Counted from the first letter of the stretch, positions 4,069-51,913 are shown. The stretch: 64,000 nucleotides of DNA from Kiritimatiellia bacterium (GCA_035327585.1 DAOLDD010000012.1:10882-74881), one strand, 5' to 3'. A program made the numbers and translations. Notes: generated by a model from the sequence alone, not told the origin.

Positions 4069-4086
4069 GCGGCGTTCGGACTTCCG

Positions 4087-5307: not shown

Positions 5308-5546
5308 CGCGAGCGCCGCGCGCGTTCGATCAGTTTTCCAATGATCGGATCATCGGCGACGCCGCCCAGCATGCCGGGTTGGCGTTCGGCCGGCGAAATT
5401 CAGAACGGATTGCTATCTCCAATTTGTAATTGGAAATCGGCAATGGGCCATTCATGCGAATCCGGGGATTGGGAGCGGATTGGGCCTGTGCGGTGGATTC
5501 AGTCTTGACGGGTGGAAGCGGGGTAAAGCACTATCCATGAAATTAA

Positions 5547-6602
<1,056 letters not shown>

Positions 6603-6695
6603 CGCTTCGCGCGCCGGCCGCCGCCTTTTTCCATTTCATCGCCCAGGAGTCCGAAAGGTTCCGGTCATGCACCCGACCTTTTCAGAGACGGGCCC

Positions 6696-7562: not shown

Positions 7563-8062
7563 ACCAGATCGCCCTCATTTTTTCGCTCCTGATGGCTGCG
7601 CTGCTGCAGGCGGCCGTGCCGACGACCGCGTGGACGGGCTGGGCTCCGGCGCCGGTGATGGCCGGGCTGGTCGTGTATTACGCGCTCGTGCATCCGCGCG
7701 GCCTCGTGCTGGAGGTCGCCCTGCTCGCCGGCCTCGTGGAGGACAGCCTGAGCCAGATGCCGCTGGGCACCACGAGCTTCGCTTACGCCGTGGCCGGCCT
7801 CGTCATGGAGCGTTATCGCGAAGATGTCGTGGTGCGCCAGTGGACGACGCACGTCGTGTTCGGGGCGCTGGTGAACGCGTCGGCGACGGTGTTCGCGATG
7901 TTCATGTTGCTGAAGGACGGCCTGATCCAGCCGCCGGGCCTGCATGTCCTGTTGCGCCTAGCCGGCGCGTTTGTGCTCGGCGGACTCATCGCGCCGTTTG
8001 TGTTCAAGGCGATGGAAAATCTTGATGCCACGCTCGGGCATGTCGACGTGGAGGCCGGCTGA
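7559..8062 (+). CDS. mreD: Rod shape-determining protein MreD
   Basis: GTG at 7559 overlaps the mreC stop (7560-7562). Small multi-TM protein embedded in the longer 7073..8062 ORF, in the typical mreBCD position. Confidence 0.7.
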   Translation: MNQIALIFSLLMAALLQAAVPTTAWTGWAPAPVMAGLVVYYALVHPRGLVLEVALLAGLVEDSLSQMPLGTTSFAYAVAGLVMERYREDVVVRQWTTHVVFGALVNASATVFAMFMLLKDGLIQPPGLHVLLRLAGAFVLGGLIAPFVFKAMENLDATLGHVDVEAG

Positions 8063-10997: not shown

Positions 10998-11011
10998 AAG
11001 GAGAGCGGGTT

Positions 11012-22144: not shown

Positions 22145-22185
22145 GGTTCATGGAAAACATTATGAACCACTCTATTTCTTTTCTT
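22145..22185 (+). terminator. Hairpin plus T-rich tract in the convergent gap (candidate bidirectional terminator)
   Basis: ggttcat/atgaacc 7-bp stem followed by ctctatttcttttctt. A second perfect hairpin gacggcat-gaa-atgccgtc lies at 22118-22136. Confidence 0.4.
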
Positions 22186-24472
22186 CCACCGCTTTGACCC
22201 TCTCCTGATCTGCGGCGGATACGTTGCCCTCGACCCAACCGTCGTCGAGGGGGTCGTCCTTGCGCGCGTTTAAATCGCGAAAGAGACGGCGCATGTCGAC
22301 AACGGCCCCGGTCATCAGCCAGACGGTTGAAATGACGCCGACGACGGAAGCGACGACCAGGTTGACGTAAAGGAAATAGCCGCTCCACCACGAAAGGGGG
22401 AGCGGGCGTATGGCATTCCAGATGAGCACGCCGACGAAGCAGATCAGAAACTGGTAGACGAAGGAATAGATGAAGACGGACCAGGAGATGATTTTGTCGC
22501 CCCGCGTGTGTTCGGGGCCGATGCCGATCAAGACGTTGTATAAATGACGCAGATTTGAGACGGCGACCGGACGGTGTTCCCCATCAATCGCGTAGAGGCC
22601 GCGGTGCAGCATCCGGTCCAAATTGTAGGGGGCCTTTCGCGTGAGCCAGGAAAAGAAGACATAGCCGGCGAATGCGGCCAGGATGGAGAGGAAATATATT
22701 TCACGCGAGTTGATGGGAAATTTTACGGGATCCATCGCCCAGACAATGTATGGGGCCAGCGGAGCGGATATGGATTTCAGGAAGGTGTCCAGCGGAAGGG
22801 TCCAGCCGCAGCGGTCGATCCAGGGGTAGACGAGGTCCGCCCATCGGCGCTGCAGGAAGATGCCGCCGACGGACAATCCGGAACCGAAGAGCAGCGCCGC
22901 CCAGGCGCCGGCGGTCGTTCCGAAACGGCTGTAGAGGCCGAACAGCATGATTGGACCCGCGCCGCCCAGCCAGATGGAGGTCGTGATGGTCAGGAACATG
23001 CTGATGTAGTCCATGTGCGCGAGGTAGAAGGAAACGAAAAAGAAAAAGAGCGCGACGCCCACGGAGGCGAAGCGTAGCCAGCGCAAGTGGGTCTTCCTGT
23101 CGAAGGGCGTGCGGCGCAACGGCATGATCACGTCCTGCACGAGGGTTGCCGAGGCATTGAAGATTCGCGAGTCGTCGGTGGACAGCATCAGCATGATGAT
23201 CAGCAGGGCGAACAGGCCCATCAGCACCGGCGGGAAGAGGTGCCCCATGGAGGCCGGCATCATCATTTGATAATAGAGCGTGCGGAATTTCTGGAAGACG
23301 GCGTTGCCTTCGCCCTCCGCGGGGATTTCCCGGTTCAGGGTATCCAGCGCGGTCGTCAGATAGATGGTGTCGGGGTTCTGCTCCCGCGAGAGTGGTTGAT
23401 CAATGCCTATCCGGTGGGGCTGTTCGGGAATGGCCCGCAGATTTTCGATGAGGTGCTCGCGAACAGAGGGATCGCTGACCACTTCACCTGCAACGCGTTC
23501 TGTGAGGGCCAGACGAACCTCCCGGGCCTTCGTGGCGAAGCGCGGGTGCGCCATCAGCGTGATGACGGAGATCGCAATGAGCAGGCACATGACGGAACTG
23601 AACCCGTTCCGCCATGCGCCGAGGATGCCGGCCATTTTCTGCTCGTGTGGGGTACGGGCGGAGCCGCTGGTATCGTTGCCGATCCAGCTCGCGCGATTGA
23701 TGATGCCGGAGAGGATGGCCACGAATAGCGCGAAGAGGTTGAAATCGCGCAGGTGGCTGATGTCCATCGGATTCAGGAAACTCTCGCCAGGCGCGCGATC
23801 CTGCATGATCGGGGCAATCTCGCCTCCCCAGGAGAACTGGGTCAGCACATACACGGTGAAGATCACGAAGATGGGATAGCTCATCAGGCCTTGAAAACAG
23901 TCGGTGATGATGAGCGAGATGCGACCCGCGGGCCAGATGACGGTCAACGACAGGACGAGGATACCCCCGATGAGCAGCCCGAAGGTCGAGAGCGGGATTC
24001 CGAGCACGGTGTATACGGGCGGCAGGCCGAGGAAGTAGATGAAGAAGCGCGCCGCCACGGCGGGACCGATGGCATTGGCGAGCATTTCGGAGATGGTGCG
24101 CAGCAGGGCGGCGAAGATGCGGAAGGAGCGGCTGTAGCGCAGTTCAAGAAATTGTCCGATGGAGAGACATCGGGTTTCCCGGAAGCGATAGATGCAGAAG
24201 CCGCTGAGGGAGAGCAGCAGGGAGATGGGGATCATGAGGCCACCCCAGAACCCGAGGGCAAATCCCGTCTGATAGCGCTCCTCCACCAACGCAACGAGCG
24301 TGATGACGCCGAGCGCGGACTCGAGGTCCCCCACCGAGATTACATAGCGGCCGGCCACGCGGCCGGCGGCCAGAAAATCGGCCACACCGCGGACATAGCG
24401 TCCGGCGTAGAGGCCCAGCGCAATGATGATGAGGATCGGAACGATGGCGATGCACCACGACAACCATGTCAT
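22172..24472 (-). CDS. Sodium:solute symporter family (SSS) transporter with a ~130-aa internal soluble insertion and extra C-terminal TM helices
   Basis: 766 aa with many TM segments and the SSS core. An atypical long hydrophilic insert (REVRLALTERVAGEVVSDPSVREHL...) sits mid-protein. Confidence 0.65.
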   Translation of the reverse strand: MTWLSWCIAIVPILIIIALGLYAGRYVRGVADFLAAGRVAGRYVISVGDLESALGVITLVALVEERYQTGFALGFWGGLMIPISLLLSLSGFCIYRFRETRCLSIGQFLELRYSRSFRIFAALLRTISEMLANAIGPAVAARFFIYFLGLPPVYTVLGIPLSTFGLLIGGILVLSLTVIWPAGRISLIITDCFQGLMSYPIFVIFTVYVLTQFSWGGEIAPIMQDRAPGESFLNPMDISHLRDFNLFALFVAILSGIINRASWIGNDTSGSARTPHEQKMAGILGAWRNGFSSVMCLLIAISVITLMAHPRFATKAREVRLALTERVAGEVVSDPSVREHLIENLRAIPEQPHRIGIDQPLSREQNPDTIYLTTALDTLNREIPAEGEGNAVFQKFRTLYYQMMMPASMGHLFPPVLMGLFALLIIMLMLSTDDSRIFNASATLVQDVIMPLRRTPFDRKTHLRWLRFASVGVALFFFFVSFYLAHMDYISMFLTITTSIWLGGAGPIMLFGLYSRFGTTAGAWAALLFGSGLSVGGIFLQRRWADLVYPWIDRCGWTLPLDTFLKSISAPLAPYIVWAMDPVKFPINSREIYFLSILAAFAGYVFFSWLTRKAPYNLDRMLHRGLYAIDGEHRPVAVSNLRHLYNVLIGIGPEHTRGDKIISWSVFIYSFVYQFLICFVGVLIWNAIRPLPLSWWSGYFLYVNLVVASVVGVISTVWLMTGAVVDMRRLFRDLNARKDDPLDDGWVEGNVSAADQERVKAVEEKK

Positions 24473-24555: not shown

Positions 24556-25521
24556 TTATGTGGCTTTGACGAAATCCAGCACTTCGCCGAGGTGTCCGTA
24601 GGCCAGTCCGACCACGGTATCCGCCGCGCCGTAGTAGATGGCGAGTCGTCCGGTTTCACGGTCCACCAAGGCCGCGCAGGGGAAGACCACGTTGGGCACG
24701 TCGCCGCAGCGTTCGTAATTCTCCTTGGGCGACATCAAATAGGGTCGGGCGCGGGCGCGCACCTTCCATGGTTCATCCAGGTCCAGCAGGGCCGCGCCAA
24801 AGGCGTAGACGAAGCCACTGCAGGAAGTCAGGACGCCATGATAGATCAGCAACCAGCCGTCCTCGGTTTCAATCGGCACGGGGCCCGCGCCAATCTTCGT
24901 GGCGTCCCATTGGCCGCCGATGGGGGACATCACATGACGATGCCGTCCCCAGAAACACAGGTCCGGACTTTCGCTGTAGAAGATGTCGCCGAACGGTGTG
25001 TGACTCGTGTCGCTGGGTCGGCTCAACATGGCGTAGCGGCCATTGATTTTGCGCGGAAAGAGAACGCCATTCCGGTTGTAGGGGAGGAAGGCGTTTTCGA
25101 GTTGATGAAATTCCTCGAAATCGTCGGTCCAACCCACGCCAATCGTGGGGCCGTGGTAGCCGTTGCACCAGGTGACATAATGCCGGCCTTCGATGGTGCA
25201 GACGCGGGGGTCGTAACCGTACTGGAAGGGGGCCGCGTCCGGATCGCTGTTCTTGAAGGTCAGCGGCTCTTTTTCAATGTTCCACTTCACGCCATCTTTG
25301 CTGAAGCCCCGGTGCAGGCGCATGTTGCGGACGCGATCATCGACGCGGAAAACGCCCGCATATCCGTCGCGAAATGGCACGAGGGCGGAATTGAAGATGC
25401 TATTTGCGCAAGGGACCTGCCGGGGTTGAATGATGGGATTGTGACGGCTGCGCCATAGAACATCATGCTCGCCGGCGGGGCGTTCCTCCCAAGGGAAAGT
25501 TCGGTGCTGTGTCGCGGTCAT
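24556..25521 (-). CDS. Glycoside hydrolase family 130 protein (beta-mannoside phosphorylase/hydrolase type)
   Basis: 321-aa 5-bladed beta-propeller GH130 signature regions ([39 protein letters not shown]). Confidence 0.75.
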
Positions 25522-25559: not shown

Positions 25560-25590
25560 GTATTAATACAGTCAACACTCTATTTGATAT
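25560..25590 (+). promoter_or_regulatory. Conserved operator/promoter motif, copy 1: perfect palindrome GTATTAATAC then 11 nt then TATTTGATAT
   Basis: Read in sequence. The same ~30-nt motif recurs upstream of the paralogs at 26597 and 35866. It lies in the divergent region between GH130 (-) and lectin-like gene A (+). A TATAAT box at 25618-25623. Confidence 0.55.
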
Positions 25591-25663
25591 AAATTCTTGC
25601 GTCTGCTTCATTGTGCGTATAATCTGCATCGTTGAGTGGAAGAAAAGGGAAAGGAAAGGCGTC

Positions 25664-26488
25664 ATGAATGCTCGTTTAGGCTGGGTGGTGTCGCTTGGAT
25701 TTTGCCTCAATTTGGGATTTCTGACAGGGGCGTCCGCGACGCTGATACAGGATGACTTCAGCGGGGCTTCACTCAATACGAACGTGTGGGGATCCGCGTT
25801 TACCGGTGGTGCGGCCGCTCCGTCACAGGCGGGTGGTGAATTGACCACCAGCGTGACGACCGGAGGTCAAAACCAGCGCTCACTGATCTACTCGCAGGAA
25901 ACAGATTTCAATTTTTCTCTGCAACCCATCACCATGAGCGCGGATATCGTCGCGCTGGGTGGGGAGGGGTCGGCCACGCAACCCGTGAATAACTATCTCC
26001 TGATCGGTTCGTTCGGCACGAACACGGAGGTTTTGAGCCGATACTACCCGGGTTCGGAACTTCGGCTGGGCGTTTGGCTCTCCGCGGGAGAAACCAATGG
26101 GGTTAACTATCTGGAGGTCGGCACGGTGCGCATCGGCAGCATTACGACCGCCCGCTATGAGTATTCGGGTGAACTGACGTCCATGTCCATGACGCTTTAT
26201 GGAACTTCCTATTCCGTCACGGCCGAAGGCATCAATGGGTTCAGCGTGGGGTCGGGGAATGGGTTCACGGGTACACTGGCGAATGTGAATTCCGCGGAAT
26301 ACAACGATCAATATCGTTTCGCGATGGGATCGGCCAATTCGTACCAAGGCGGGGTCACGACGGGCGCATCGGCTATTTGGGATAGCGTGAGCGTGGTGCC
26401 GGAACCCGGCACGCTGGCGTTGCTGTTGATCGGCGTGGGCGGATTGGCGGTCTCGCGAAAAATATCGCGTCGGGCGCGGCGCGAGTAA
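25664..26488 (+). CDS. PEP-CTERM-anchored secreted protein carrying a novel ~221-aa lectin-like domain (paralog A)
   Basis: Signal peptide, then the domain (LIQDDFSG...GSFGT...YYPGSEL...GVNYLEVGTVRIG...RFAMGSANSYQG), ending in a PEP-CTERM sorting signal VPEPGTLALLLIGVGGLAVSRKISRRARRE. Confidence 0.75.
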   Translation: MNARLGWVVSLGFCLNLGFLTGASATLIQDDFSGASLNTNVWGSAFTGGAAAPSQAGGELTTSVTTGGQNQRSLIYSQETDFNFSLQPITMSADIVALGGEGSATQPVNNYLLIGSFGTNTEVLSRYYPGSELRLGVWLSAGETNGVNYLEVGTVRIGSITTARYEYSGELTSMSMTLYGTSYSVTAEGINGFSVGSGNGFTGTLANVNSAEYNDQYRFAMGSANSYQGGVTTGASAIWDSVSVVPEPGTLALLLIGVGGLAVSRKISRRARRE

Positions 26489-26596
26489 TCTCAGGCAAAA
26501 GTTCCGGCGACTTTGCGTGGGTCGCTTTGTCAGTAAACACGCCTGGGGTGGAGCAGGGGTTTGGTTTCATGCTGATAGGATGGCATTGGTTTGTAC

Positions 26597-26626
26597 GTAT
26601 TAATACAGTCACTATATATTTGATAT
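26597..26626 (+). promoter_or_regulatory. Conserved operator/promoter motif, copy 2 (GTATTAATAC then 10 nt then TATTTGATAT), preceded by TTTGTAC
   Basis: Near-identical to copy 1. Upstream of gene B. A sigma54-like -24/-12 element TGGCGT-N5-ATGCA sits at 26674-26689. Confidence 0.55.
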
Positions 26627-26710
26627 TTACCTCTATCCGATTTGTGATTGTTAATGTAGTATTAGCCGGAGTGTGGCGTTTGGCATGCAAATCCCGAGGG
26701 TAATGGGGGC

Positions 26711-29341
26711 TTGAGAGACATGATTTGCAGACAAGTTGGGTGGGCGGGCTGCCTGGTATTTATTCTGGCGATCCATGCCTTTCCCTGCCCCACGGTGGAC
26801 GAATTTGGCGGGGCATCGATTGATACCGCCATCTGGGGATCGGCCAATACCGGCGCGGCGAGCGCCCCGTCGCAGACGGGCGGCAAACTGATCACCACGG
26901 TTACGGGAACCGGCCAGAATCAGCGATCCCTGATCTACTCGCTGCGCACGAATCTGAACTTCTTTGCGAGATCCCTCACCCTGAGCGCGGATATCGCCGC
27001 CTTGGGCGGAACGGGATCGGACATACGCCCGGTGAACCGCTACCTGTTGATCGGATCGTTTGGCACCGGAGCGGAAACCTTCAGCCGGTACTATCCGGGC
27101 ACCGAGTTGACGTACGGTGTGTGGCTGTCCGCGGGGCAAACCAACGGCGTAAACTATCTCGAGGTAGGAACCGTGCGGATCGGCAACGTGACCGCCATAC
27201 GGCAGGTCTATTCCGGTGTGTTGACCAACATGTCCCTGCTGCTGGATAAAACCTCATTTTCAGTAACCGCCAGCGGTACGGGTGGATTCAGCGTGGGATC
27301 GGGAAACAGCTTCACCGGCACGCTGGCAAATGTGGTCGAAGCCGACTATGCCGGCCGATTCCGTTTCGCGATGGGCGCGGCGAACTCGTATCAAGGCGCG
27401 GTCACGGCGGGCGCCTCTGCGGAATGGAACAACGTATCGATAGTGCCGACGCCCGCGCCGGTCTTGTCCGGGGACGAATTTAATGGGGTGTCGCTTAACG
27501 CGGCCCTCTGGGGGGCAACGCAAACGGGCGTCGCGGCCCCGTCAGTGGCGAACGGTAAACTGACTACACCGGTTACGACAAACAGCCAGAATCAGCGCGC
27601 GTTGATCTATTCATTGCGAACGAATCTCAATTTCTTTGCCCAATCCATCAACTTGAGTGCGGACATCGCCGCCTTGGGCGGGACGGGGTCGCAGCAATTT
27701 CCGGTGAACCGGTATTTCCTGATTGGTTCCTTTGGCACGAATACGGAAGTCCTGAGTCAGTACTATCCGGGCTCCGAGCTTCGGTTCGGCGTCTGGTTGA
27801 CGGCCGGGCAAACCAACGGCGTGAACTATCTCGAGCTCGGAACCGTGCGGATCGGCACCGTGACCGCCATCCGACAGGTCTATACCGGCGTATTGACCAA
27901 CATGTCCCTGGTCCTGAACAAAACCGCGTTTTCCGTAACCGCCAGCGGCACGGGAGGATTCAGCGTGGGATCGGGCAACAGCTTCACCGGCACGCTGGCG
28001 AACGTTTTGGAGGTCGATTACGCCGGCCGATTCCGTTTCGCATTGGGAGCGGCGAATTCGTATCAGGGCGCGGTCACCGCGGGCGCCTCGGCGGAATGGC
28101 ACAACGTATCGTTGATCTATGCGGATGATTCCAATGTGCAGGTCACGATGGACGCCGTGAGCAGCCGGTCCGTCACCAATGGTCAACCCGTCGTCTTCTC
28201 CGTCAACAGCACGAGCGCCGACTGCACCATCCCGTTGCTGAGGATGGGCGGGTTGCCATCGGGGGCCACCTTTACGGTCGTCACAAATGTTGCCGAACGG
28301 AGGGTCACGGGCACGTTCAGTTGGACGCCATCCGTGTCGCCGGGCACCCACAGCATGCGCATCTATTCATGGAATGCCAGCGGCTCAACGAGCTCCTACG
28401 CGCTGAATCTGTATGTGGACAATGTGGGCCAACCCCAAAGCGGCGGTGTGTGGAACTCGCAAACCAACTGGCGGATATCGGTCAGTGCGTTGCGCGCGCC
28501 GAGCAGCGGCAATGCGACGCTCGTGTGGCATTCCGTGACGGGCGTGACGTATGATGTGTATGCATCCTCGCTGCCGTTGGGCGGCGGCGCTTTTTGGGGA
28601 ACCCCGATAACCTCCGGCGTTGAGGCCGCGGGAGTCCTGGCCACCGCCGTGGTGGCGTCGGGCGGTTCCATGCGATTCTATCAAGTGGTGCCGCAGGGGA
28701 TGACCCGCACCGATCGGGGCGTGTGGGGCGTCGTGCGGCCATCCGTGCCAAGCACATTCCACCTGATGTCACCGCCGCTGGTGAGCACCCTCAGTTTCGC
28801 CGACGGCGGAAGTTTCGGCCAGGCCCTCTCGCTCGCGGTTCCTGTCGGCGCGAAGGTCCATATCGCGACGGATGCCACCCCAAGCTGGCTCACCCTGGTG
28901 AAGCAGTCCGGGGGAACATGGCGAACCGTCCCGGCCAATACCGAGTACACCACGCCACTGAATGCCGGCCAGGCCTTTTATCTTGAGGGTGCGTCCGGGT
29001 CCTCCCCGGCGTTCACCGGCGCGGTTCGCAGTGATGGCACGCAATCATATTCATTGGGTACCGGCATAAACCCGGTGGGCATTGCCGAAGGGCGGCCCAT
29101 TTCGCTGGCAGCGACCTTCAGCACCAGCACCATGAGCTCTCCGCCGGTGGGCAATGACAACGAGGACCTGGCCGACATTCTGGTGGTCCAGCACGCCGAC
29201 GGGACGTGGCGTCGCATTGTCCGGCTCGAGAACGGAACCTGGTGGGACATGCGATCGCGCGGAGCAACCACGGTGAATCTCCAGCCGGGCGAAGCCCTGT
29301 TCTACGTGCGCCGGGGAGGCAGCTCCAGCGTGAGCTTCTGA
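26711..29341 (+). CDS. Large secreted protein: two tandem copies of the novel lectin-like domain, then an Ig/PKD-like region and a C-terminal beta-rich domain (paralog B, no PEP-CTERM)
   Basis: TTG start at 26711 (ATG at 26720). N-terminal hydrophobic signal. Domain copies at aa 26-246 and 251-470. A putative-Ig-like segment (GQPVVFSVNSTSAD...TFSWTP...PGTHS). Confidence 0.7.
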   Translation: MRDMICRQVGWAGCLVFILAIHAFPCPTVDEFGGASIDTAIWGSANTGAASAPSQTGGKLITTVTGTGQNQRSLIYSLRTNLNFFARSLTLSADIAALGGTGSDIRPVNRYLLIGSFGTGAETFSRYYPGTELTYGVWLSAGQTNGVNYLEVGTVRIGNVTAIRQVYSGVLTNMSLLLDKTSFSVTASGTGGFSVGSGNSFTGTLANVVEADYAGRFRFAMGAANSYQGAVTAGASAEWNNVSIVPTPAPVLSGDEFNGVSLNAALWGATQTGVAAPSVANGKLTTPVTTNSQNQRALIYSLRTNLNFFAQSINLSADIAALGGTGSQQFPVNRYFLIGSFGTNTEVLSQYYPGSELRFGVWLTAGQTNGVNYLELGTVRIGTVTAIRQVYTGVLTNMSLVLNKTAFSVTASGTGGFSVGSGNSFTGTLANVLEVDYAGRFRFALGAANSYQGAVTAGASAEWHNVSLIYADDSNVQVTMDAVSSRSVTNGQPVVFSVNSTSADCTIPLLRMGGLPSGATFTVVTNVAERRVTGTFSWTPSVSPGTHSMRIYSWNASGSTSSYALNLYVDNVGQPQSGGVWNSQTNWRISVSALRAPSSGNATLVWHSVTGVTYDVYASSLPLGGGAFWGTPITSGVEAAGVLATAVVASGGSMRFYQVVPQGMTRTDRGVWGVVRPSVPSTFHLMSPPLVSTLSFADGGSFGQALSLAVPVGAKVHIATDATPSWLTLVKQSGGTWRTVPANTEYTTPLNAGQAFYLEGASGSSPAFTGAVRSDGTQSYSLGTGINPVGIAEGRPISLAATFSTSTMSSPPVGNDNEDLADILVVQHADGTWRRIVRLENGTWWDMRSRGATTVNLQPGEALFYVRRGGSSSVSF
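26786..28120 (+). repeat. Intragenic tandem duplication: two ~660-bp direct repeats (26786-27448 and 27461-28120) encoding the lectin-like domain
   Basis: Protein copies are about 70-75% identical and the DNA is visibly similar over long stretches (e.g. ggcgtaaactatctcgaggtaggaaccgtgcggatcggcaacgtgaccgcc vs ggcgtgaactatctcgagctcggaaccgtgcggatcggcaccgtgaccgcc). Confidence 0.8.
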
Positions 29342-29343
29342 TC

Positions 29344-30033
29344 GTGAGATTGCATGCTTCCATAATCCGCATGGCCGGAACGCTGGTGGTGTGGGCGCTG
29401 ACCGCCGCCGGGGCTTCCGCCGCCGTGCTGGCGATTCACGAGTTCAATACGAACGATCAAAACTGGGAGGCCGCCGGCGACATGGCCGCCGTTGCGCACT
29501 CCGCATTCAGTGGCGGCTCGTTGCGTGGCGACTTCAATTCACAGGGCATGATTTTCACTCCGGAGACCGGCTCGTTTCACCAGGATACGGACCCCAATTT
29601 CCTGGGTGTCTATCCGGGGCCATTCCTGATCACCGGATTTTCGTTTGATTTATACGCGGACAGCGTGATTCCTCTAGATGTGAACCTCCGGTTGCTGTCC
29701 GGTGTGAACGCTTATTTCATCACCCTCAATATCTCCGGGCGCAACTGGACCGGATGGGAAAACTTCACCGTGGCCCTGGACGATCCTCTGTGGCAGGGCA
29801 ATCCCGCCATTCTGAACACGGTGACCGCCGTGGAGGTTCAGGTTGCGCGTGGTTCCGCGGCTGCGCAATCCTTCTATCTCGATAACTTTCAGACGCTGAG
29901 TGACGAATTTATCCCGGGCGCACTCGTGCCCGAACCGAACACTCTGATGATGTTCTTGAACGCTGGACTTCTATTGGCTGTTCTGCGGCGCCGCGCCATG
30001 CGCAAACGTCCCGCGTCCGAGGAGGCGGTATGA
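29344..30033 (+). CDS. PEP-CTERM-anchored secreted protein (second paralog family, member 1)
   Basis: GTG at 29344 gives a positively charged N-region plus hydrophobic core (ATG at 29371 is the alternative). C-terminal PEP-CTERM VPEPNTLMMFLNAGLLLAVLRRRAMRKRP. Confidence 0.65.
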   Translation: MRLHASIIRMAGTLVVWALTAAGASAAVLAIHEFNTNDQNWEAAGDMAAVAHSAFSGGSLRGDFNSQGMIFTPETGSFHQDTDPNFLGVYPGPFLITGFSFDLYADSVIPLDVNLRLLSGVNAYFITLNISGRNWTGWENFTVALDDPLWQGNPAILNTVTAVEVQVARGSAAAQSFYLDNFQTLSDEFIPGALVPEPNTLMMFLNAGLLLAVLRRRAMRKRPASEEAV

Positions 30034-30812
30034 GATTCCTGTTTTGCATTATTCTGGCGATGGTCCTCGTCCTGACGGTACGGAGAGCGGATTGCGGTGA
30101 GGCGCATGTGGAGGATTTTAGTGACGGCGCCAACACCAGCGATGCCAGTCTCGCATACGGCATCGGTTCGTGGACGTTCACCGGCGGGACCGCGCGGGTC
30201 AGGATGACCAAAACGGCCCCGTATGCCTATCCGGATGTGGCGTCACTGAGTCCGAAGGCCTCCGCTTTCGCAGGTGACTGGATGGAGTCGGGTCACGAGT
30301 TGGTCGGCTTCAAATTTATGGCCGGTTCGCCCGCGCCCTCCCATCTCTATCTCGAACTGCTCGCGTCCGCAGGACGGCTTTACCGGAAAATATTCCCGGT
30401 GCCCGAGCCGGGGGAGTGGACCACCTTCATGGCCTCGATCACGGATGGTGACGGAGGGGGCTGGATTGCGGTGGAGGGAACCATCGGCGAGTTCCAGGAC
30501 GCGTTGCGCAACGTGGAGCGCGTTTCGGTCAATATCCAACGCGCCGGTGCGCTGGCGGTCGAGCACGCCGTTGACGATTTCTTCCTCGACCGGCTTCCCC
30601 GCCAGGTGGATGCCCGCATTACGAGCGCCGGCGCGCAATTCTCGCTGGATGCCCTGCAGTCGGGAGCTCTTTACACCTTGCAAGCCAGCGCATCGCTGAC
30701 CGGTCCATGGCAGGATGTGCAGACGATGGCCGCGACAAACCGGCTCCAGCATCTGGAGCTTCCGCTTTTGCCGGATGCCTCCGTAAAGTATTATCGCCTG
30801 TTGTCTCCGTGA
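30030..30812 (+). CDS. Secreted protein paralogous to the preceding gene (EDFSDG... / ...VERVSVNIQRAGALAVEHAVDDFFLD) but without PEP-CTERM
   Basis: Start overlaps the upstream stop. Signal peptide MRFLFCIILAMVLVL. Shares the N-terminal (H/E)(E/D)F..(N/D) motif and the C-terminal V.V.(V/I).R...A......D.F motif with 29344..30033. Confidence 0.55.
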   Translation: MRFLFCIILAMVLVLTVRRADCGEAHVEDFSDGANTSDASLAYGIGSWTFTGGTARVRMTKTAPYAYPDVASLSPKASAFAGDWMESGHELVGFKFMAGSPAPSHLYLELLASAGRLYRKIFPVPEPGEWTTFMASITDGDGGGWIAVEGTIGEFQDALRNVERVSVNIQRAGALAVEHAVDDFFLDRLPRQVDARITSAGAQFSLDALQSGALYTLQASASLTGPWQDVQTMAATNRLQHLELPLLPDASVKYYRLLSP

Positions 30813-30895: not shown

Positions 30896-31582
30896 GTGCG
30901 CTGCAAGTCGCGTGGCGGGTTGTCGCATAACGGATTCACATTGATTGAGTTGCTGGTCGTCATTGCGATCATCGCGGTGTTGATGGCCATTATCGTGCCG
31001 TCCGTCCAAAGTGCGCTGGAGCGCGCGCGCGCCATTGCGTGCACCAGTCAATTGCGGCAAATCGGCCAGGCGTTCTTTAGCTATGCCGGCACGTACGACG
31101 CCCTGCCCGCGCCCGCGGGGCACGTTGCAGGCGGAGGCATGCCCGATCCTTCGTTCTGGTATTCATCGCTCGGTCCTTTTTTGGGGCTCGGATGGAGCCG
31201 GGGGAGTGGACCGCGACCCGGGGACCTGGCCTTTCAGAATACCAAACTGGCTTGCCCAACTTATGGCGGGAATCGCCTGGGCTATGCCTACAATGAGTTC
31301 CTGCCCCCCTCGCACCGGTCTGAATGGATACCGAAAGTCACACCCGCCAAGTGGTTCCTGGATTCTTCCTCCCGATCAACCGAACGTCTCCTGGTCGCGG
31401 ATGCGACAAGCTGGTACACGGGAGGCCCGGACATGATCACGTATGGCGACTCCTCCCTCCTCGACTGGAACCGCCACAACCGGTCGGCCAACCTGCTTTT
31501 TCTTGATGGCCATGTGCAAAAGCATGACAAGGCCTTCATCGCGACGAACCGGCTGACGCTCTTCTTTTTCGATGTATTGTGA
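30896..31582 (+). CDS. DUF1559-type protein with a prepilin-type N-terminal cleavage/methylation domain
   Basis: GTG start. GFTLIELLVVIAIIAVLMAIIVPS pilin-like N-terminus, LRQIGQAFFSYA motif and a C-terminal LLFLDGHV motif, characteristic of DUF1559 proteins. Confidence 0.7.
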   Translation: MRCKSRGGLSHNGFTLIELLVVIAIIAVLMAIIVPSVQSALERARAIACTSQLRQIGQAFFSYAGTYDALPAPAGHVAGGGMPDPSFWYSSLGPFLGLGWSRGSGPRPGDLAFQNTKLACPTYGGNRLGYAYNEFLPPSHRSEWIPKVTPAKWFLDSSSRSTERLLVADATSWYTGGPDMITYGDSSLLDWNRHNRSANLLFLDGHVQKHDKAFIATNRLTLFFFDVL

Positions 31583-33407
31583 CGGTCCGCGTCATGCCCC
31601 GGTCATGAACTGCCAATCCCACCATCTCGCCATCGGCTTGTCCCCTTGCACGCCCGCCTTCACGCGATTTGCCGTTGATTCGCTTGGGACGGGCCGGCTC
31701 GATTGCAATCCGGTTCTGGTGCGGTCTTCAGTCGCGAGCGTTCCCGGCTTGGAACTCGGGTCGGACCTCACCTACACAATCCATGGCCATCCGGTATGGA
31801 GCGTCCAGTGCAATGACCGCACAATCGTGCTTCGTTCCATGCACGTGCCTGGAAGGGAAATTCCCGCCTTCCGTCTTGTGATCAATCAGAAAGCCAATCA
31901 TGCCACGCTGCTCGGACTCATGGAGCCGGGAGATCGACGGATGTCTTTCCCTTGTGTGCTTCATATGCCGGGTATGGGCTCGCTGCGCATCACCTGCAAC
32001 CAGTCGGAGGTGAAGCTTGGCTACGACGCCCGGCGCTGGGTCGTGACCACGCCTTATGTCGAGCTCGCCTTTCCGCCCGCCAGCGCAGCCTGCCCGCGAA
32101 TGGAATACCGGATGGAGGTCGTGGCTCTTCATCCTCCGTTGCCCCGCCATGCGGATAAGCCGCTTTACGACGGTTTCCGGCGCGATTGGCTCAGCATGTT
32201 TCAGATCAATCCACGCATGCAGATTCTGGCGAACAACGCCTCCAGCGATCCGTGCGCATTCACCCTTTTCGAGTATTCCGAAGTCGCCCTGCACACGCCA
32301 CCGCTGGCTGACCGGCTTGGCTGCCTCGATCTGATCCGCATGTCGCTGGACCGTTACATCGCCGGCCAGTTGGGCTATGGCCAGGTCGGATATGCCGAAA
32401 ACGGGGAATCCGGTCACCCCTGCGAGCCCTATGGCGCGGATCTGAATCCATGGGGTACTGCCTGGGCTTCACTCGATACGCTGCCCTCGTTGCTCATCGC
32501 CGCCTGCAACTATGTCAAGGGAAGCGGGGATGCAGGCTGGGCGCGTGCGAATTTCGAGGCCCTGGCCGCATGGGGCCACGAAATGTGGGCGGCCGACCGG
32601 AACGGCAACGGCCTGGTCGAATATCCCGGCTCCGGCAATTACGGCGACCGTCCCAATCGCGAACGCCGTCCCTCAAACTGGTGGGACACCATTAACTTCG
32701 GCCACGAAGACGCCTTCTCGAATGCGCTGGTCTATCGCGCCACGGTCCTGTTTGCCGGACTTGCGCGGCAGCTCGGCCAGGGACGGGATGCCGACCTGTT
32801 TTCCGGGAAAGCCGCCAACCTCCGCGCCGCTTATGTTCCGACTTTTCTTAACCCCGAGACTGGCGTGCTCGCCGGTTGGAAAAGCGCGGATGGGCAACTG
32901 CATGATTATTGGTTCGTCTTCATACAAGGACTGGCGATCGCCAGCGGGCTTGTTGATGACGCCCTCGCCAACGACATCATGGACCGCATCCTCGCGAAGA
33001 TGCGTGAGGTCGGATTCGATCGATTCGATATTGGACTGCCTGGCAATCTGATCCCGGTGAAAAAGGGGGACTACATCGATCACGAGGGTCCCCCTGAAGA
33101 ATTTGGCATCCCGCAACGCGACGACGGCAGCGACGGCTTCCAATTTTATGAAAACGGCGGGGCCAGCGGTTGCTGGGTTTACTACACCCTCAAGGCGCTA
33201 TTCGACCTCGGACGCGTGGACGATGCGCGTCGTATTCTATACCCGATGTTGGAAGGCTACGCCGCTGGAGGGTTTCAGGGTTTTGGTGAAAACGGAAGGT
33301 CCCGTGACTGGCGCGACTGGAGCGGCGGCTGCCACGGCTACGAAGGCCTGCTGGTGGACAACTACCTCGCCCTGCTCGCGGTGCTCGACGACGTGCGGGC
33401 TCCGTGA
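31572..33407 (+). CDS. Putative (alpha/alpha)6-barrel glycoside hydrolase (GDE_C/GH63-like), family uncertain
   Basis: 611 aa with no signal peptide. Toroid-type GH-like segments (WDTINFGHEDAFSNALVYRA, DYWFVFIQGLA). Assignment rests on weak similarity only. Confidence 0.4.
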   Translation: MYCDGPRHAPVMNCQSHHLAIGLSPCTPAFTRFAVDSLGTGRLDCNPVLVRSSVASVPGLELGSDLTYTIHGHPVWSVQCNDRTIVLRSMHVPGREIPAFRLVINQKANHATLLGLMEPGDRRMSFPCVLHMPGMGSLRITCNQSEVKLGYDARRWVVTTPYVELAFPPASAACPRMEYRMEVVALHPPLPRHADKPLYDGFRRDWLSMFQINPRMQILANNASSDPCAFTLFEYSEVALHTPPLADRLGCLDLIRMSLDRYIAGQLGYGQVGYAENGESGHPCEPYGADLNPWGTAWASLDTLPSLLIAACNYVKGSGDAGWARANFEALAAWGHEMWAADRNGNGLVEYPGSGNYGDRPNRERRPSNWWDTINFGHEDAFSNALVYRATVLFAGLARQLGQGRDADLFSGKAANLRAAYVPTFLNPETGVLAGWKSADGQLHDYWFVFIQGLAIASGLVDDALANDIMDRILAKMREVGFDRFDIGLPGNLIPVKKGDYIDHEGPPEEFGIPQRDDGSDGFQFYENGGASGCWVYYTLKALFDLGRVDDARRILYPMLEGYAAGGFQGFGENGRSRDWRDWSGGCHGYEGLLVDNYLALLAVLDDVRAP

Positions 33408-33454: not shown

Positions 33455-34762
33455 TTACCTGTGCATGCCGTCGGGCGGTACGATCGCCTGATGCCGGGTC
33501 AGGAGCTGTCGAAGGTCCTTCAGTGGAACGTCTCCGATCGGGATGTGCCGCTGTGCGGCAATCGCGGTCACCGCGCCGACCGCCTGACCCATGGCCATGC
33601 AGGATGCTTGCACACGGTAGGCTGAATTCGCCAGCGGGTCACCGCAGGCCGTGCGTCCCGCGACGATGAGATTTTTGGCGCCCTTGGGAATCATCGCGCG
33701 CAGGGGAATGGTGGGGAAGGTGCCGTGCGCCAATGGACGAATGTCCACCCCGTCGCCGTCCGCGCGGTGCAGGTCAATCGGATAGAAGCTGTAGCAGACG
33801 GCATCCTCCCAAAGGCGTCCGCTGGTGTAATCGCCCACGGTGATTTCCACCTCGCCCTCAATCACGCCGGTATCGCGCACCCCGCATTCCGGCGCGCACC
33901 GGTCGATCTCGGTGTGTTCGAGTCCCGGTTGTTGCCGGAGAAAACGAAGCAGGCGCAGTAAGGCCGCCCGTGCGCGCTGTTCCAGTGCCGTGCGCCCGGC
34001 GCTGGTGTGGCCTTCAGCGTCCGGCACATGCATCTTGTTCTCGCCGCGCGAACGCAGAAACCATTCCAGCGCGCGTGGATCGTGTGCGCCCGCGTCGGAC
34101 GCGTGAACCCGTCCGGTGGCGAGGGCTTCCGCCCATGCGCGATTGAGTGCATCATAATCCAAGCCTTCAGGATCATAACCATTCAGGCGGAACATCAGGG
34201 TGGCGGGTTGCGGCGAAGCGGTCGGACGCCTCACCGGATGGCCGGCCAGCGCGATGCCGTTCGCGTCGCCGGTGGCGTCAATAACCATCCGGGCCGTCGC
34301 GGTTCGGAGTCCCTCCTTGACGGCCAGTTGAACGCGCCAATCCCCGTTCGCTTCCTGGTCGAGCGCAACGGGCATCGCGTGATAGAGAACTTCGACTCCG
34401 GCCTGCACCAAAGCTTCGTCGATCAGAGCGGCATAAACCGCCGTATTCACCTTCACCTGCAGGAGCCAGTGCGGCTGGTCCCACTTCTGGAAGTCCGGCA
34501 GTTTGCCGCCAACTTCGCGGACCGCGCGTTCGACCAATTCCCATCCGATGCCCGCGATGATCTGGCGGCCCCAGGCATGGAACAGGCCGGGCAGGTTCAC
34601 GCCCGCGCTGGTGGTGGTGCCGCCGGGCTGTGCGGTCTTTTCCACCAGCAGGGTTTTCGCGCCCGCCCGGGCGGCTTGCAGGGCGGCGGTGGCGCCGGCT
34701 GGTCCGGCCCCCAGGACAAGCACATCGACGCGCTCGCTGGTGAGGCGTTCCGCCGGATTCAT
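33455..34762 (-). CDS. FAD-dependent oxidoreductase (PF12831-like)
   Basis: VDVLVLGAGPAGATAALQAARAGAKTLLVEK dinucleotide-binding motif. The family is commonly found next to GH genes. Confidence 0.7.
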   Translation of the reverse strand: MNPAERLTSERVDVLVLGAGPAGATAALQAARAGAKTLLVEKTAQPGGTTTSAGVNLPGLFHAWGRQIIAGIGWELVERAVREVGGKLPDFQKWDQPHWLLQVKVNTAVYAALIDEALVQAGVEVLYHAMPVALDQEANGDWRVQLAVKEGLRTATARMVIDATGDANGIALAGHPVRRPTASPQPATLMFRLNGYDPEGLDYDALNRAWAEALATGRVHASDAGAHDPRALEWFLRSRGENKMHVPDAEGHTSAGRTALEQRARAALLRLLRFLRQQPGLEHTEIDRCAPECGVRDTGVIEGEVEITVGDYTSGRLWEDAVCYSFYPIDLHRADGDGVDIRPLAHGTFPTIPLRAMIPKGAKNLIVAGRTACGDPLANSAYRVQASCMAMGQAVGAVTAIAAQRHIPIGDVPLKDLRQLLTRHQAIVPPDGMHR

Positions 34763-35850
34763 GCAAGATTTCCGTTCTGTATGACGGCCTCCAGGCGTTG
34801 GCGTGAGCCGTCCGGTTCAAACGTTGCCGGAATATAGTGCACCACCGGCGGCGTTTCATTTCTTCTCATCGCGCGCAGGGTCGCGGAAGCCTGGGTGAGG
34901 AAGTCGCGCACGTCATAGCCCAGCCGGTCGACGGGTACGGCGCAGGGCAGCACCTGTGGCCAGTTGCAATGAGCCACGACCTGGACATCGACGGGGATAT
35001 TGACGCCCGCGCTCAACACGCCGGAGAGCACGTATTCCATCAAGTTGTCGTCAGCAATGATCAATCCGTCGGGCCGGGTCTCCGGCGCGGCGGAGAAAAG
35101 CAGCTGCATGATGCGCGTGGCAATTTCGGGATGCTCGAGCGCCACCATCTGCAACCAGCGATCATGGGTCTCCATTCCGCTGCGCAGAATCTCCTCCTTG
35201 AATCGCTCCATCGGTTCAACCAGCGGTTGATGAGCCACCGCGATTCGACGGCAGCCGCGCGTTCGCAGCCGTTCAATCGAGAGGGAGATGAATGAATCGG
35301 TGTCCGTATCGATCAGGGGCAGGTCCGGAGTCGTGGCGTGCAGCAGGCGGACTTTCGGGATGTCAAATTCGCCGAAATCGGGCGTCTCAGCGCTGAGATA
35401 CGGGTCGGCGACCAATACCAACCCCGCGATTTTCATGCTGGTGATGTCGCGGGTTAGCTGCTGATAAGCCGGATTGTCGACGTGCCGGTCGACGTCGAAA
35501 TAGAAATCCCATTGTACGTCGGTGGCATTGCTGGCCGCCGCCGCCACTTCCTTGAGCGCCGTCCAGAAGCGATTGGTCCGGCCGGTCGTTACGGGGAAAA
35601 CCAGGGCAAATTTATGCAGATGAGGCGGGTGTGACGTAACCCGTGTGCCGCGTCGTCCATCCGTCACGACGAAACCGTCCTGGCTCAGTTTGCGCAATAC
35701 TTGTTGCACCGTGGAACGCGAGACGGAGAACTCCCGCATCAGTTCGTCGCAGGTCGGGAAGCGCTCCCCGGGTGGATAGGTGCCGTTGGTCAGCCGGTCC
35801 AGCACCTCCTTGGCCAGCATCGCCCTTCTCGTTGGTTTCTTGGGTTTCAT
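34759..35850 (-). CDS. AraR-type transcriptional regulator (GntR-family wHTH fused to a LacI/PBP1-type sugar-binding domain)
   Basis: N-terminal GntR HTH (FPTCDELMREFSVSRSTVQQVLRKL), a C-terminal periplasmic-binding-protein-like effector domain. Divergent from lectin-like paralog C. Confidence 0.7.
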   Translation of the reverse strand: MKPKKPTRRAMLAKEVLDRLTNGTYPPGERFPTCDELMREFSVSRSTVQQVLRKLSQDGFVVTDGRRGTRVTSHPPHLHKFALVFPVTTGRTNRFWTALKEVAAAASNATDVQWDFYFDVDRHVDNPAYQQLTRDITSMKIAGLVLVADPYLSAETPDFGEFDIPKVRLLHATTPDLPLIDTDTDSFISLSIERLRTRGCRRIAVAHQPLVEPMERFKEEILRSGMETHDRWLQMVALEHPEIATRIMQLLFSAAPETRPDGLIIADDNLMEYVLSGVLSAGVNIPVDVQVVAHCNWPQVLPCAVPVDRLGYDVRDFLTQASATLRAMRRNETPPVVHYIPATFEPDGSRQRLEAVIQNGNLA

Positions 35851-35865: not shown

Positions 35866-35897
35866 GTACTAATACAATGAGATCGAATTTTGATACA
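35866..35897 (+). promoter_or_regulatory. Conserved operator/promoter motif, copy 3 (ATTGTACTAATACAAT near-palindrome then TTTTGATACA)
   Basis: 16-bp near-perfect palindrome (2 mismatches) resembling copies 1 and 2 and GntR/AraR-type operators (GT-N6-AC). In the divergent region between the AraR-type regulator and paralog C. Confidence 0.5.
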
Positions 35898-35982: not shown

Positions 35983-36735
35983 ATGAATGCGTTTTTCCTC
36001 AGGGATCTCCTGCGTGGAGGTTGTCTTAACCTTGTATTCCTGACCCTGACCTCTGCAAGCCTTATTCAGGATGACTTTAATGGGAGTATGCTTGATACGA
36101 ATCAGTGGGGAACCGCATATACGGGGGGCGCGGCCGCTCCAGTACAGACCGGGGGCGGGTTGATGGTGCATGTGGAGACCAATTCGCAGAATCAACGGGC
36201 CCTGGTCTTCTCGACGCGAACGGACCTCGATTTTACCGCCAGGCCGATCACCATGGCGGCGACGATTTCCGCACTGGGCGGTGCGGGTGCGGTGCAGTGG
36301 CCCGTGAATCGCTATCTCTTAATAGGTTCCTTTGGAACCCAACCAGAAATTCAGAGTCGCTACTATCCCGGCTCGGAACTTCCCATGGGCGTATGGCTGG
36401 CTGCCGGGCAAACCAACGGCATGAATTATCTGGAAGTGGGTACGGTGCGTCTTGGGCGGGTGGAAACCACCCGGGAAATTTATCAAGGCGTATTGACCGC
36501 CATGTCGCTGACGTTGCATGGGAACACGTATTCCGTATCCGCCAGCGGCATCGATGGGTTCAGCGTGGGGGCCGACAACCGCATCGTGGGTGTCCTGGCG
36601 AATATTCACACCGAGGAATACAACGGCCATTTTCGTTTCGCGATGGGAGCCGCGAACTCTTTCCAGGGCGCGGTCTCCGAAGGCGCGTCGGTGGTTTGGG
36701 ACAGCGTGACGGTGAACTCGGCGCTTGCACCGTAG
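35983..36735 (+). CDS. Secreted protein with the novel lectin-like domain (paralog C), no PEP-CTERM anchor
   Basis: ATG at 35983 (Met 32 of the track ORF). Signal-like N-terminus. The domain ends in ...DSVTVNSALAP with no sorting signal. Confidence 0.7.
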   Translation: MNAFFLRDLLRGGCLNLVFLTLTSASLIQDDFNGSMLDTNQWGTAYTGGAAAPVQTGGGLMVHVETNSQNQRALVFSTRTDLDFTARPITMAATISALGGAGAVQWPVNRYLLIGSFGTQPEIQSRYYPGSELPMGVWLAAGQTNGMNYLEVGTVRLGRVETTREIYQGVLTAMSLTLHGNTYSVSASGIDGFSVGADNRIVGVLANIHTEEYNGHFRFAMGAANSFQGAVSEGASVVWDSVTVNSALAP

Positions 36736-36790
36736 CGGCTCCTGCCCGCCATGCTTGCGCAAATTAATGCCACGAAGGGACGCGTGCACA

Positions 36791-43247: not shown

Positions 43248-43283
43248 GATGAGGTTGCCCGGAATAAAGAATGGCGGCCCGGT

Positions 43284-51760: not shown

Positions 51761-51913
51761 GGCGTTTGTTGGAGGGGAGAATAATTGGGAATGGCGCGGA
51801 ATCAATTCAAACAACATCGTACATTGCGCTGCGTTGCTGGAGAAGAATGACCCGCACATGCGAGCTGCTTGTATCCCCGGGACGCGCGTGCTATTCATGA
51901 CGGCACATACGCC

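Follow-up and report, generated by a model that had tools for sequence, protein, structure and literature searches.

Among the anaerobes that break down complex and often sulfated polysaccharides, the Kiritimatiellia and other PVC bacteria have an important place. To our knowledge they lack the SusC/D machinery of the Bacteroidota, and little is understood of how they keep substrates at the cell surface. Among proteins of the concanavalin-A-like (ConA-like) fold, the LamG, Laminin_G_3 and DUF1080 families are common in PVC bacteria. Catalytic beta-jelly-rolls are found in GH16, GH7, GH12 and PL7, the alginate lyases of PL7 being marked by the sequence blocks RxExR, QxH and YFKAGxYxQ and by a catalytic His/Tyr with Arg/Gln. 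Proteins with a PEP-CTERM sorting signal provide a further point of comparison, since floc formation needs them along with exopolysaccharide (PMC9850573, PMC9012009), and cultured Kiritimatiellae make abundant exopolymers (PMC7356697).

Here, we analyze a 64-kb stretch of DNA from a Kiritimatiellia bacterium (hereafter the window), in which three genes, designated A, B and C, encode four copies of a ~220-aa domain. The domain is a previously unclassified family of known fold, a modest find, and we give an even chance to the reading that it serves as a non-catalytic glycan binder in a sugar-induced surface system.

Results

The three open reading frames reported by a first-pass annotation of the window are all present (Table 1), as are the four copies of the ~221-aa domain that it assigned to them. 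The copies align over 221 columns with one single-residue gap in all, and their computed consensus agrees with the string originally proposed. Identity to the copy in gene A ranges from 62 to 66% and mean column identity is 78%, while pairwise values span 58–77% for amino acids and 62–79% for nucleotides, the two copies within gene B (B1 and B2) forming the closest pair. The dN/dS ratios of all domain copies fall between 0.15 and 0.23, indicative of purifying selection throughout. Gene A (HMP76082.1 at NCBI, named 'PEP-CTERM sorting domain-containing protein') has an alternative GTG start at 25613 that would give a 291-aa product. Gene C (HMP76090.1) is named 'hypothetical protein'; its orthologous short forms elsewhere terminate in ...PEPGPAP, a vestigial PEP motif.

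Table 1. Features of the window surrounding genes A, B and C.
Feature	Position	Strand	Remarks
Sodium:solute symporter-family transporter	22172..24472	-	PF00474 E=5.6e-5, marginally below cutoff
GH130 (beta-mannoside phosphorylase/hydrolase family)	24556..25521	-	PF04041 E=2e-69
Palindrome GTATTAATAC	25560..25569		GH130/gene A divergent promoter region; putative GntR-type operator
Gene A	25664..26488	+	274 aa counted from ATG; signal peptide aa 1-25
Gene A domain copy	25739..26398		aa 26-245
Gene A PEP-CTERM sorting signal	26396..26485		aa 245-274
Palindrome GTATTAATAC, second copy	26597..26606		105 bp before gene B start
Gene B	26711..29341	+	876 aa; begins with signal peptide
Gene B domain copy 1 (B1)	26783..27445		
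Gene B domain copy 2 (B2)	27455..28114		
Gene B C-terminal module	28121..29338		~405 aa, beta-rich
Small secreted protein	29371..30033	+	PEP-CTERM-like tail (PF07589 E=0.0078, weak), unrelated domain
260-aa secreted protein	30030..30812	+	No known family; start overlaps preceding gene by 4 bp
Pseudopilin-like protein	30920..31582	+	N-terminal methylation motif (PF07963) and DUF1559 (PF07596)
Six-hairpin glycosidase-like protein	31572..33407	+	Weak GH78/MGH1-like; PF17389 E=4.6e-7
FAD-dependent oxidoreductase	33455..34762	-	PF12831 E=1.7e-87
GntR-HTH and periplasmic-binding-protein-like regulator	34759..35850	-	PF00392 E=9.5e-15; PF13377 E=3.5e-10; divergent from gene C
Palindrome GTACTAATAC, third copy	35866..35875		Between regulator gene and gene C
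Gene C	35983..36735	+	250 aa; signal peptide and one domain copy, no anchor
Gene C domain copy	36058..36717		
Putative glycosidase, C-terminal CBM9	36725..40474	+	1249 aa; PF06452 E=3.3e-6; directly downstream of gene C; true start probably near 36791
GH78	48300..50537		
Second GH130	50582..52588		

The predicted structure of the domain is a ConA-like jelly-roll, as had been anticipated, with the two antiparallel beta-sheets of a ~200–240-residue sandwich, superposable on ConA-like proteins, that define this lectin/glucanase fold superfamily. The accompanying claim that the domain belongs to no known sequence family also survives scrutiny, as profiles from Pfam, NCBIfam and the PDB are all negative. 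Neither of the two outcomes that the first-pass annotation had named as counting against it, a confident match to a well-described CBM or lectin family or a predicted fold without a beta-sandwich, was observed. In Pfam, the domain of genes A, B and C finds no match even at E<=10, whether to Lectin_legB (PF00139), Lectin_leg-like (PF03388) or any CBM family, and no PDB chain matches by sequence; phmmer and hmmsearch queries of the PDB, run with one sequence and with profiles of the close and the broadened family, return no lectin. The sole PDB match of the broadened profile, GAPDH at E=0.55, is attributable to chance. LamG, Laminin_G_3 and DUF1080 are absent both from A, B and C (Pfam, E<=10) and from 28 distant relatives (Pfam, E<=1e-3).

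Comparisons with described jelly-roll proteins underscore this separation. The L-type (legume-like) lectins and the cargo-receptor lectin domains of ERGIC-53, Emp47p and VIP36 are 5–12% identical to the domain, to which neither sequence nor profile searches relate them (Pfam E<=10, PDB), and these proteins belong to the eukaryotic secretory pathway or to seeds, whereas the proteins described here are bacterial and exosortase-linked. The C-terminal modules of GH43, the CBM-like modules of phage Dit and receptor-binding proteins, and the lectin modules of sialidases are non-catalytic jelly-rolls attached to glycosidases, whereas the present domain is in this genome mostly a free-standing protein with no enzyme attached; no structurally solved module bears a sequence relationship to it.

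The first-pass annotation further described one member as PEP-CTERM-tagged and another as extended by Ig-like domains. Recognition of a PEP-CTERM signal calls for a C-terminal PEP motif, a hydrophobic helix and a basic tail scoring above a curated cutoff; the tail of gene A reaches 28.1 bits against PF07589 (cutoff 20.7) and 24.1 bits against TIGR02595 (cutoff 16), and genes B and C return no PEP-CTERM match. The Ig-like assignment for gene B stays putative, as Pfam yields sub-threshold noise only. The last 405 aa, modelled with AF2 from four sequences, come out nearly all beta but in a model too poor (pLDDT 46) for use in a fold search. This C-terminal module matches P0018-P0020 at 44–57% identity and occurs elsewhere as a stand-alone protein, and the gene B ortholog in the related contig L001 is 81% identical. 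Co-occurrence with exosortase, also foreseen, holds in part: a PF09721 exosortase (EpsH) gene resides ~1 kb from a family ortholog in related contigs L001-L003, and tblastn detects no exosortase homolog in the window.

The family is exceedingly sparse. Clustered at 50% identity, it makes up 30 clusters in a set of 1.84 billion representatives, and 185,579 GTDB species representatives contain no member; it is thus much rarer and more lineage-restricted than the spread over other PVC genomes first envisaged. The only GTDB match, 26 residues in L005 (Limisphaerales), is spurious because it lies antisense within a larger, 826-aa ORF. That ORF, which is unannotated, is protease-like by eye. Family proteins of L001 match the copies in the window with tblastn E values of 1e-51 to 1e-104, far beyond chance. 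Distant relatives for the most part consist of a signal peptide, the domain and a PEP-CTERM tail; in one of them, P0035, the domain occurs in an N-terminal fusion with GH5. A Rosetta-stone link was considered through two large proteins of the distant group, P0032 and P0035, and discarded, as neither is homologous to the 1249-aa CBM9 protein. Family members are less conserved than the genes around them, at 45% identity vs 63–76% for neighbours in L010 and 74% vs 86–92% in L001, and therefore diverge faster. Literature searches on PEP-CTERM or exosortase in Kiritimatiellia, on PEP-CTERM with concanavalin, and on DUF1559 with polysaccharide turned up nothing relevant to the domain family.

Genes for carbohydrate catabolism surround the family, largely as first described: GH130, CBM9, GH78 and weak GH78-like genes were recovered, but GH27 (melibiase) has no Pfam match in the scanned predicted proteins, which included all large ones and part of the small ORFs. 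The GH130 gene at 24556 is divergent from gene A, a pairing kept in related contigs, and its orthologs (76–86% identical) adjoin family members in L001-L003 and L010; the symporter gene lies downstream of it on the same strand. In L004 and L010, homologs of the pseudopilin-like protein adjoin family members; orthologs of the FAD oxidoreductase (75% identical) lie near members in L001 and L010. In L008, a full-length homolog (33%) of the 1249-aa CBM9 protein is encoded close to the distant member P0024, and in L010 a 186-aa fragment homolog adjoins P0023. Synteny of the family with the GH130, DUF1559, FAD-oxidoreductase and CBM9-protein genes holds down to ~33–47% identity. The gene immediately after gene B, whose product ends in a visible VPEPNTL...RRR tail, probably shares an operon with it. 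Homologs of this gene and of the next are fused in one protein in L006, and the 260-aa product matches the C-terminal half of the 489-aa protein from L006 at 40% identity.

A 10-bp palindrome, GTAYTAATAC, occurs at only three sites in the 64 kb, one upstream of each family gene; the 6 strand-matches compare with 0.74 expected, and none of 100 shuffles reached 6. The first site lies 39 bp from the start codon (ATG) of GH130 and precedes that of gene A by 95 bp; it is kept upstream of the ortholog in L001-L003. In L001 and L002, the second is likewise kept ahead of the 876-aa ortholog. The palindrome is conserved upstream of family orthologs in another species, and it also precedes the DUF1559 pseudopilin-like homolog of L001. 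Operators of the GntR family are short palindromes of the GT-Nx-AC type. GTAYTAATAC has this form, has one site in the intergenic region that separates gene C from the regulator gene and is conserved across species; we regard it as the probable operator of this GntR/sugar-binding regulator. Around the palindromes, a simple scan for sigma-70 promoters gave nothing, and terminator-like matches fall inside coding sequence and were set aside.

Discussion

The most likely role of genes A, B and C is non-catalytic, sugar-induced surface glycan binding. We infer carbohydrate binding by the domain from its fold, architecture and gene context; surface display, the ligand and the identity of the palindrome-binding protein are likewise inferred. 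The gene A product would be exported by Sec and then processed by exosortase at its PEP-CTERM tail, so as to be held on the cell surface. The gene C product, carrying the same module without an anchor, would presumably be released or periplasmic, and that of gene B would present two tandem modules on a beta-rich stalk. The GntR/sugar-binding regulator may act through the palindrome common to A, B and C; because this palindrome is shared and is a probable operator of the regulator, the binders would be induced together with neighbouring catabolic genes. With substrate present, the A, B and C binders would be switched on with the GH130, six-hairpin and CBM9 glycosidases, and the same switch would also turn on the DUF1559 pseudopilin-like protein and the FAD oxidoreductase. 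A polysaccharide containing mannose and/or rhamnose is the probable substrate.

A described parallel to gene A is PepA (NF033554), the PEP-CTERM flocculation protein of floc-forming bacteria, and it raises the unlikely alternative that the domain serves the exosortase system in a structural or adhesive role as a matrix protein, which would be exported and built into, or bind, the cell's own exopolysaccharide to form aggregates or biofilm and not capture food polysaccharide. Gene A and most of the distant relatives combine a signal peptide, one domain of ~220 aa and a PEP-CTERM tail, a layout that at a size of ~270 aa resembles PepA; PEP-CTERM architecture prevails throughout the superfamily, EpsH adjoins the ortholog in L001-L003, and both the floc role of PEP-CTERM proteins and the exopolymers of Kiritimatiellae cited above fit such a function. 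The resemblance does not extend to the globular domain, which is unrelated. Full-length gene A scores 25.8 bits against floc_PepA (cutoff 80) and 30.9 bits against EDSAP-1 (NF041538; cutoff 100), and the domain alone has no match to either NCBIfam model at E<=10; homology to both is rejected because the scores depend on the PEP-CTERM tail and disappear once it is removed. Genes B and C, moreover, have no tail. Furthermore, the loci are catabolic and not devoted to exopolysaccharide synthesis: neither in the window nor in related loci do glycosyltransferases, Wzx/Wzy or PrsK/PrsR sit beside the family genes, whose conserved partners are GH130, GH78, the CBM9 glycosidase, sulfatase and the FAD oxidoreductase. 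Finally, the apparent regulator is of the sugar-sensing GntR/PBP type.

Enzymes of the ConA-like fold, namely GH16 and PL7, score equally well against the domain model, and the domain might itself represent a new beta-jelly-roll GH or PL family that cleaves polysaccharide outside the cell. We regard this as distinctly unlikely. The domain has no Pfam match to any GH or PL family, GH16 and PL7 included, even at E<=10. Neither the four copies nor the consensus of the family contains the ExDxxE (or ExDxE) motif of GH16 glucanases and carrageenases, and PF00722 finds no match. In contrast to PL7 alginate lyases with their catalytic His, the family has no invariant or nearly invariant His and no Pfam alginate lyase match, and its penultimate strand, RFAMGAANSYQ, is in our estimation only loosely like the YFKAGxYxQ block. 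Candidate acidic residues are not kept in distant relatives, and invariance within the close family stems largely from its shallowness (at least 58% identity). Tandem duplication and the N-terminal GH5 fusion of P0035 are, moreover, typical of accessory modules.

That A, B and C form a sequence-variable, lineage-specific coat or receptor for cell-cell or phage contact, placed only incidentally in a carbohydrate locus, is improbable: family members do diverge faster than their neighbours, the predicted fold also matches phage receptor-binding modules and the family does not reach beyond a narrow clade, but the same catabolic genes stay syntenic with it across deep divergence, the common upstream palindrome ties expression to the locus, and dN/dS at the whole-gene level bears no sign of diversifying selection.

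The impact of glycan binding by the family is limited, since its members are extremely rare and restricted to one lineage, its fold is very common and its function is so far a proposal. The conserved palindrome nevertheless provides an easily testable marker of the regulon. If the glycan-binding reading is true, the A/B/C family would be a concrete candidate for the surface substrate-holding step of PVC bacteria and possibly a new CBM family, and PEP-CTERM sorting would gain a role beyond the cell's own exopolysaccharide matrix. We advance, tentatively and as something of a long shot, the broader view that the domain founds a new lectin/CBM family for exosortase-anchored glycan capture in Kiritimatiellia polysaccharide-utilisation loci, working with DUF1559 proteins under one GntR-type sugar switch; were this so, its anchored, free and tandem-on-stalk formats would afford both short-range and long-range capture.

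A rare domain family in a common fold

The three open reading frames reported by the first-pass annotation are all present in the window, and alignment, tblastn searches and dN/dS ratios bear out its proposal that genes A, B and C share one domain in four copies. The copies span 221 aligned columns with one gap of a single residue, and show 62-66% identity to copy A and a mean column identity of 78%. Pairwise identities among the four copies range from 58 to 77% for amino acids and from 62 to 79% for nucleotides, the closest pair being the two copies within gene B. Family proteins encoded by L001, a related contig, match the window copies by tblastn with E-values of 1e-51 to 1e-104, and whole-gene dN/dS values of 0.15-0.23 in ortholog and paralog comparisons indicate that the family genes are maintained.

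Positions of family genes, domain copies, palindromes and the recurrent pseudopilin-like gene (L001, L004 and L010 are contigs outside the window)
Feature	Location	Position	Strand	Length
Gene A	window	25664..26488	+	274 aa
Gene B	window	26711..29341	+	876 aa
Gene C	window	35983..36735	+	250 aa
Domain copy	A protein	aa 26-245		
Domain copies	B protein	aa 25-245; 249-468		
Domain copy	C protein	aa 26-245		
Palindrome	window	25560-25569; 26597-26606; 35866-35875		
Palindrome	L001	3721; 9892; 12898; 18104		
N_methyl + DUF1559 gene	window	30920-31582		
N_methyl + DUF1559 gene	L004	1061-1717		
N_methyl + DUF1559 gene	L010	2061-2738		
N_methyl + DUF1559 gene	L001	3904-4566		

The first-pass annotation could not place the domain in a known family, and Pfam, NCBIfam and PDB sequence searches all lack a match to it. 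Pfam-A searches of genes A, B and C at E<=10 returned only the PEP-CTERM tail of A and two noise matches, both in the C-terminal part of gene B. In NCBIfam, gene A drew matches far under cutoff, among them floc_PepA (25.8, cutoff 80) and EDSAP-1 (30.9, cutoff 100). These disappeared when 17 domain-only sequences were searched at E<=10, so the sorting tail was their source and both are ruled out as the family of the domain. PDB sequence searches with a single protein, a close-family profile or a broadened profile found nothing apart from a chance GAPDH match to the broadened profile (E=0.55). In this Kiritimatiellia MAG, NCBI names the gene A product 'PEP-CTERM sorting domain-containing protein' and those of genes B and C 'hypothetical protein'.

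Among 5.8 billion clustered proteins, a profile search recovered 17 clusters, 16 of them matching the first query copy at 62% identity or more, and HMMER, run exhaustively against 1.84 billion representatives clustered at 50% identity, yielded 30 proteins at E<=1e-3, nine at E<=1e-10. The one candidate among 185,579 GTDB species representatives is spurious because it lies antisense inside an 826-aa protease-like ORF. The family is thus real, but very rare and confined to its lineage. The finding is genuine, with most of the structural predictions made at first pass borne out: the domain makes up a sequence family that is both new and very rare, in one of the commonest carbohydrate-related folds, and the sorting signal is a known one.

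Secretion and anchoring

Sec-type leaders, read from the sequence, open all three proteins. One member was expected to be PEP-CTERM-anchored, and the signal of gene A is bona fide (Pfam-A, 28.1 bits, cutoff 20.7); signal peptide, domain and PEP-CTERM form the layout of most distant relatives. Co-occurrence with exosortase holds in three related metagenomic contigs, where an EpsH gene follows the gene A ortholog after ~1 kb and adjoins a second PEP-CTERM paralog. In the 64-kb window no exosortase homolog was found.

Unanchored gene C orthologs of 250-252 aa (P0006, P0011, P0012 and P0013) end in '...PEPGPAP', PDPGSAP or PGPGPAP in the family alignment A2, endings that represent a truncated PEP-CTERM from which the helix and the basic tail are missing; the last residues of gene C are 'NSALAP' (36718-36732). 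This vestige suggests that the free form descends from an anchored one through tail loss.

The C-terminal ~405 residues of gene B occur elsewhere as a stand-alone protein (P0018-P0020, 44-57% identity). An AF2 model of this part is poor (pLDDT 46) and nearly all beta, and its proposed 'Ig-like' nature is plausible. On contig L006 (2315-5027) the homolog is a stand-alone 413-aa protein, and the next gene, of 489 aa, fuses homologs of window genes 29371..30033 and 30030..30812; in the window, this conserved three-part unit (28121-30812) acquired two lectin-fold domains. Gene B (29290-29338) and its stand-alone relatives share the end ...PGEA.(F/Y)Y(V/I/L)RR......V.F, whose terminal Phe motif appears to resemble an outer-membrane-protein C-terminal signal.

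Gene neighbourhood and a shared palindrome

Gene A diverges from a GH130 gene and a solute-symporter gene. After gene B come, overlapping or closely spaced, genes for a second PEP-CTERM protein, for a secreted protein of 260 aa, for an N_methyl/DUF1559 protein and for a six-hairpin glycosidase, and gene C is followed by a 1249-aa protein with CBM9 at its C-terminus. At a greater distance are genes for GH78, another GH130-like protein and a SASA esterase, together with fucose/arabinose-isomerase-like and FAD-oxidase/CCG genes. The glycosidase surroundings first described stand for GH130, GH78 and CBM9; no GH27 match appeared among the predicted proteins scanned, which took in all the large ones. 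In its longest form, the ORF of the CBM9 protein shares 11 bp with the end of gene C (36725-36800); a start near 36791 (MRQIGIAGKNGWRLAALGLLCVMA...), with a signal-peptide-like leader, seems more plausible and would leave a ~55-bp gap, suggesting co-transcription with gene C. The left end of the window (1-11000) carries a LysM protein, two FtsW/RodA-family genes, MreB and MreC, cell-shape and cell-wall genes unrelated to the carbohydrate locus.

This gene partnership is kept well beyond the close family. P0023 (L010), 45% identical to A, has DUF1559 (63%) on one side and a fragment of the CBM9 protein on the other, with GH130 (76%) and an FAD oxidoreductase (75%) beside them; P0017 (~47% identical) has DUF1559 (50%) after it and a sulfatase and GH78 (67%) close by; and P0024 has both a sulfatase and a full-length CBM9-protein homolog (33%) in its vicinity. 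On L008 (~1880-2070), a sequence of ~95 bp (…GCGCGAAAATTGTGCTTGAATGGATGTGGCAGCATTTGTATAGTGATGTCTGTACAAATGAATACAATTAGGTTAATTCATACAGGAGGACGGTCA…) is directly duplicated a short way upstream of the two-gene unit to which P0024 belongs. The N_methyl + DUF1559 pseudopilin-like gene occurs beside family genes, or in the same apparent regulon, in all lineages examined. Family proteins diverge faster than their syntenic neighbours (45% vs 63-76% identity in L010; 74% vs 86-92% in L001), though whole-gene dN/dS is only 0.15-0.23; surface-exposed proteins often diverge fast, as family members do here.

Upstream of A, B and C lies a 10-bp palindrome, GTAYTAATAC (GTATTAATAC in A and B, GTACTAATAC in C), with a box resembling TTTGATAyA or GATACAAAAC 14-16 nt after it. 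With one mismatch allowed, the palindrome occurs across the 64 kb at those three places only (six strand-matches against 0.74 expected; 0 of 100 shuffles reach six). In L001-L003, from another species with proteins 64-92% identical, an exact copy precedes every family gene covered by the contig, and in L001 also the DUF1559 gene, within intergenic sequence that has diverged from the window's. The more distant L010 has degenerate palindromes before GH130 and before the family member. A regulator with a GntR-HTH and a periplasmic-binding-protein-type domain is divergent from gene C, one palindrome lying in the shared intergenic region. GntR operators are generally described as having the form GT-Nx-AC, which the palindrome fits, and it is probably an operator of this adjacent regulator. 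A simple scan around the palindromes found no sigma-70 promoter, so it is conceivable that the element belongs to an atypical promoter instead.

A probable binder rather than an enzyme

Cultured Kiritimatiellae ferment complex and sulfated polysaccharides (PMC7356697, PMC5148204). Deoxy-sugar catabolism-like genes at L001 4616-7578 and window 40525-44747 both include fucose/arabinose-isomerase-like, FAD-oxidase and CCG Fe-S genes, with a glycyl-radical enzyme and its activase in addition in L001, and hint at rhamnose or fucose in the target glycan. The best-supported reading, which we put at roughly even chances, is of sugar-induced, secreted lectin-fold binders in three formats, with the gene A protein anchored via exosortase, the gene C protein free and the gene B protein a tandem binder on a stalk, that would hold mannose- or rhamnose-containing polysaccharide for co-regulated enzymes. 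A role as PepA-like matrix or aggregation proteins would suit the PEP-CTERM/exosortase link (PMC9850573), but is unlikely, since the conserved neighbours are catabolic genes and EPS-synthesis genes are missing beside the family genes.

That the domain is a jelly-roll hydrolase or lyase of a new kind, as the GH16/PL7 fold matches might suggest, is somewhat less likely still. The many invariant polar residues of the close family are expected at identities of at least 58%. Among 25 distant relatives aligned to the family HMM, the superfamily-conserved positions are mostly structural (F7, W17, L35, G75, G144, G164, G197 and the [DN]F[ND][FP]F turn) and also include R47 and N200. The acids an enzyme might use are not conserved: E107 and E126 vary among these relatives, as do Y102/Y103, R131 and R139, and residues ~95-135 form the most variable stretch of the domain. 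Catalytic motifs are likewise missing, as the family has neither the GH16 ExDxxE motif nor an invariant His. The architectures, too, point to an accessory module, with the domain duplicated in tandem in gene B, present as a distant copy on the N-terminal side of the GH5 catalytic domain in P0035, whose gene lies in a GH5/GH3 cluster, and joined with PATR repeats and PEP-CTERM in P0027 and P0028. From conservation and architecture together, we favour a non-catalytic binder. A lineage-specific surface coat or receptor is very improbable.

What adds most to this picture is the shared palindrome together with the deep synteny, because they make the regulon and the binding hypothesis directly testable.
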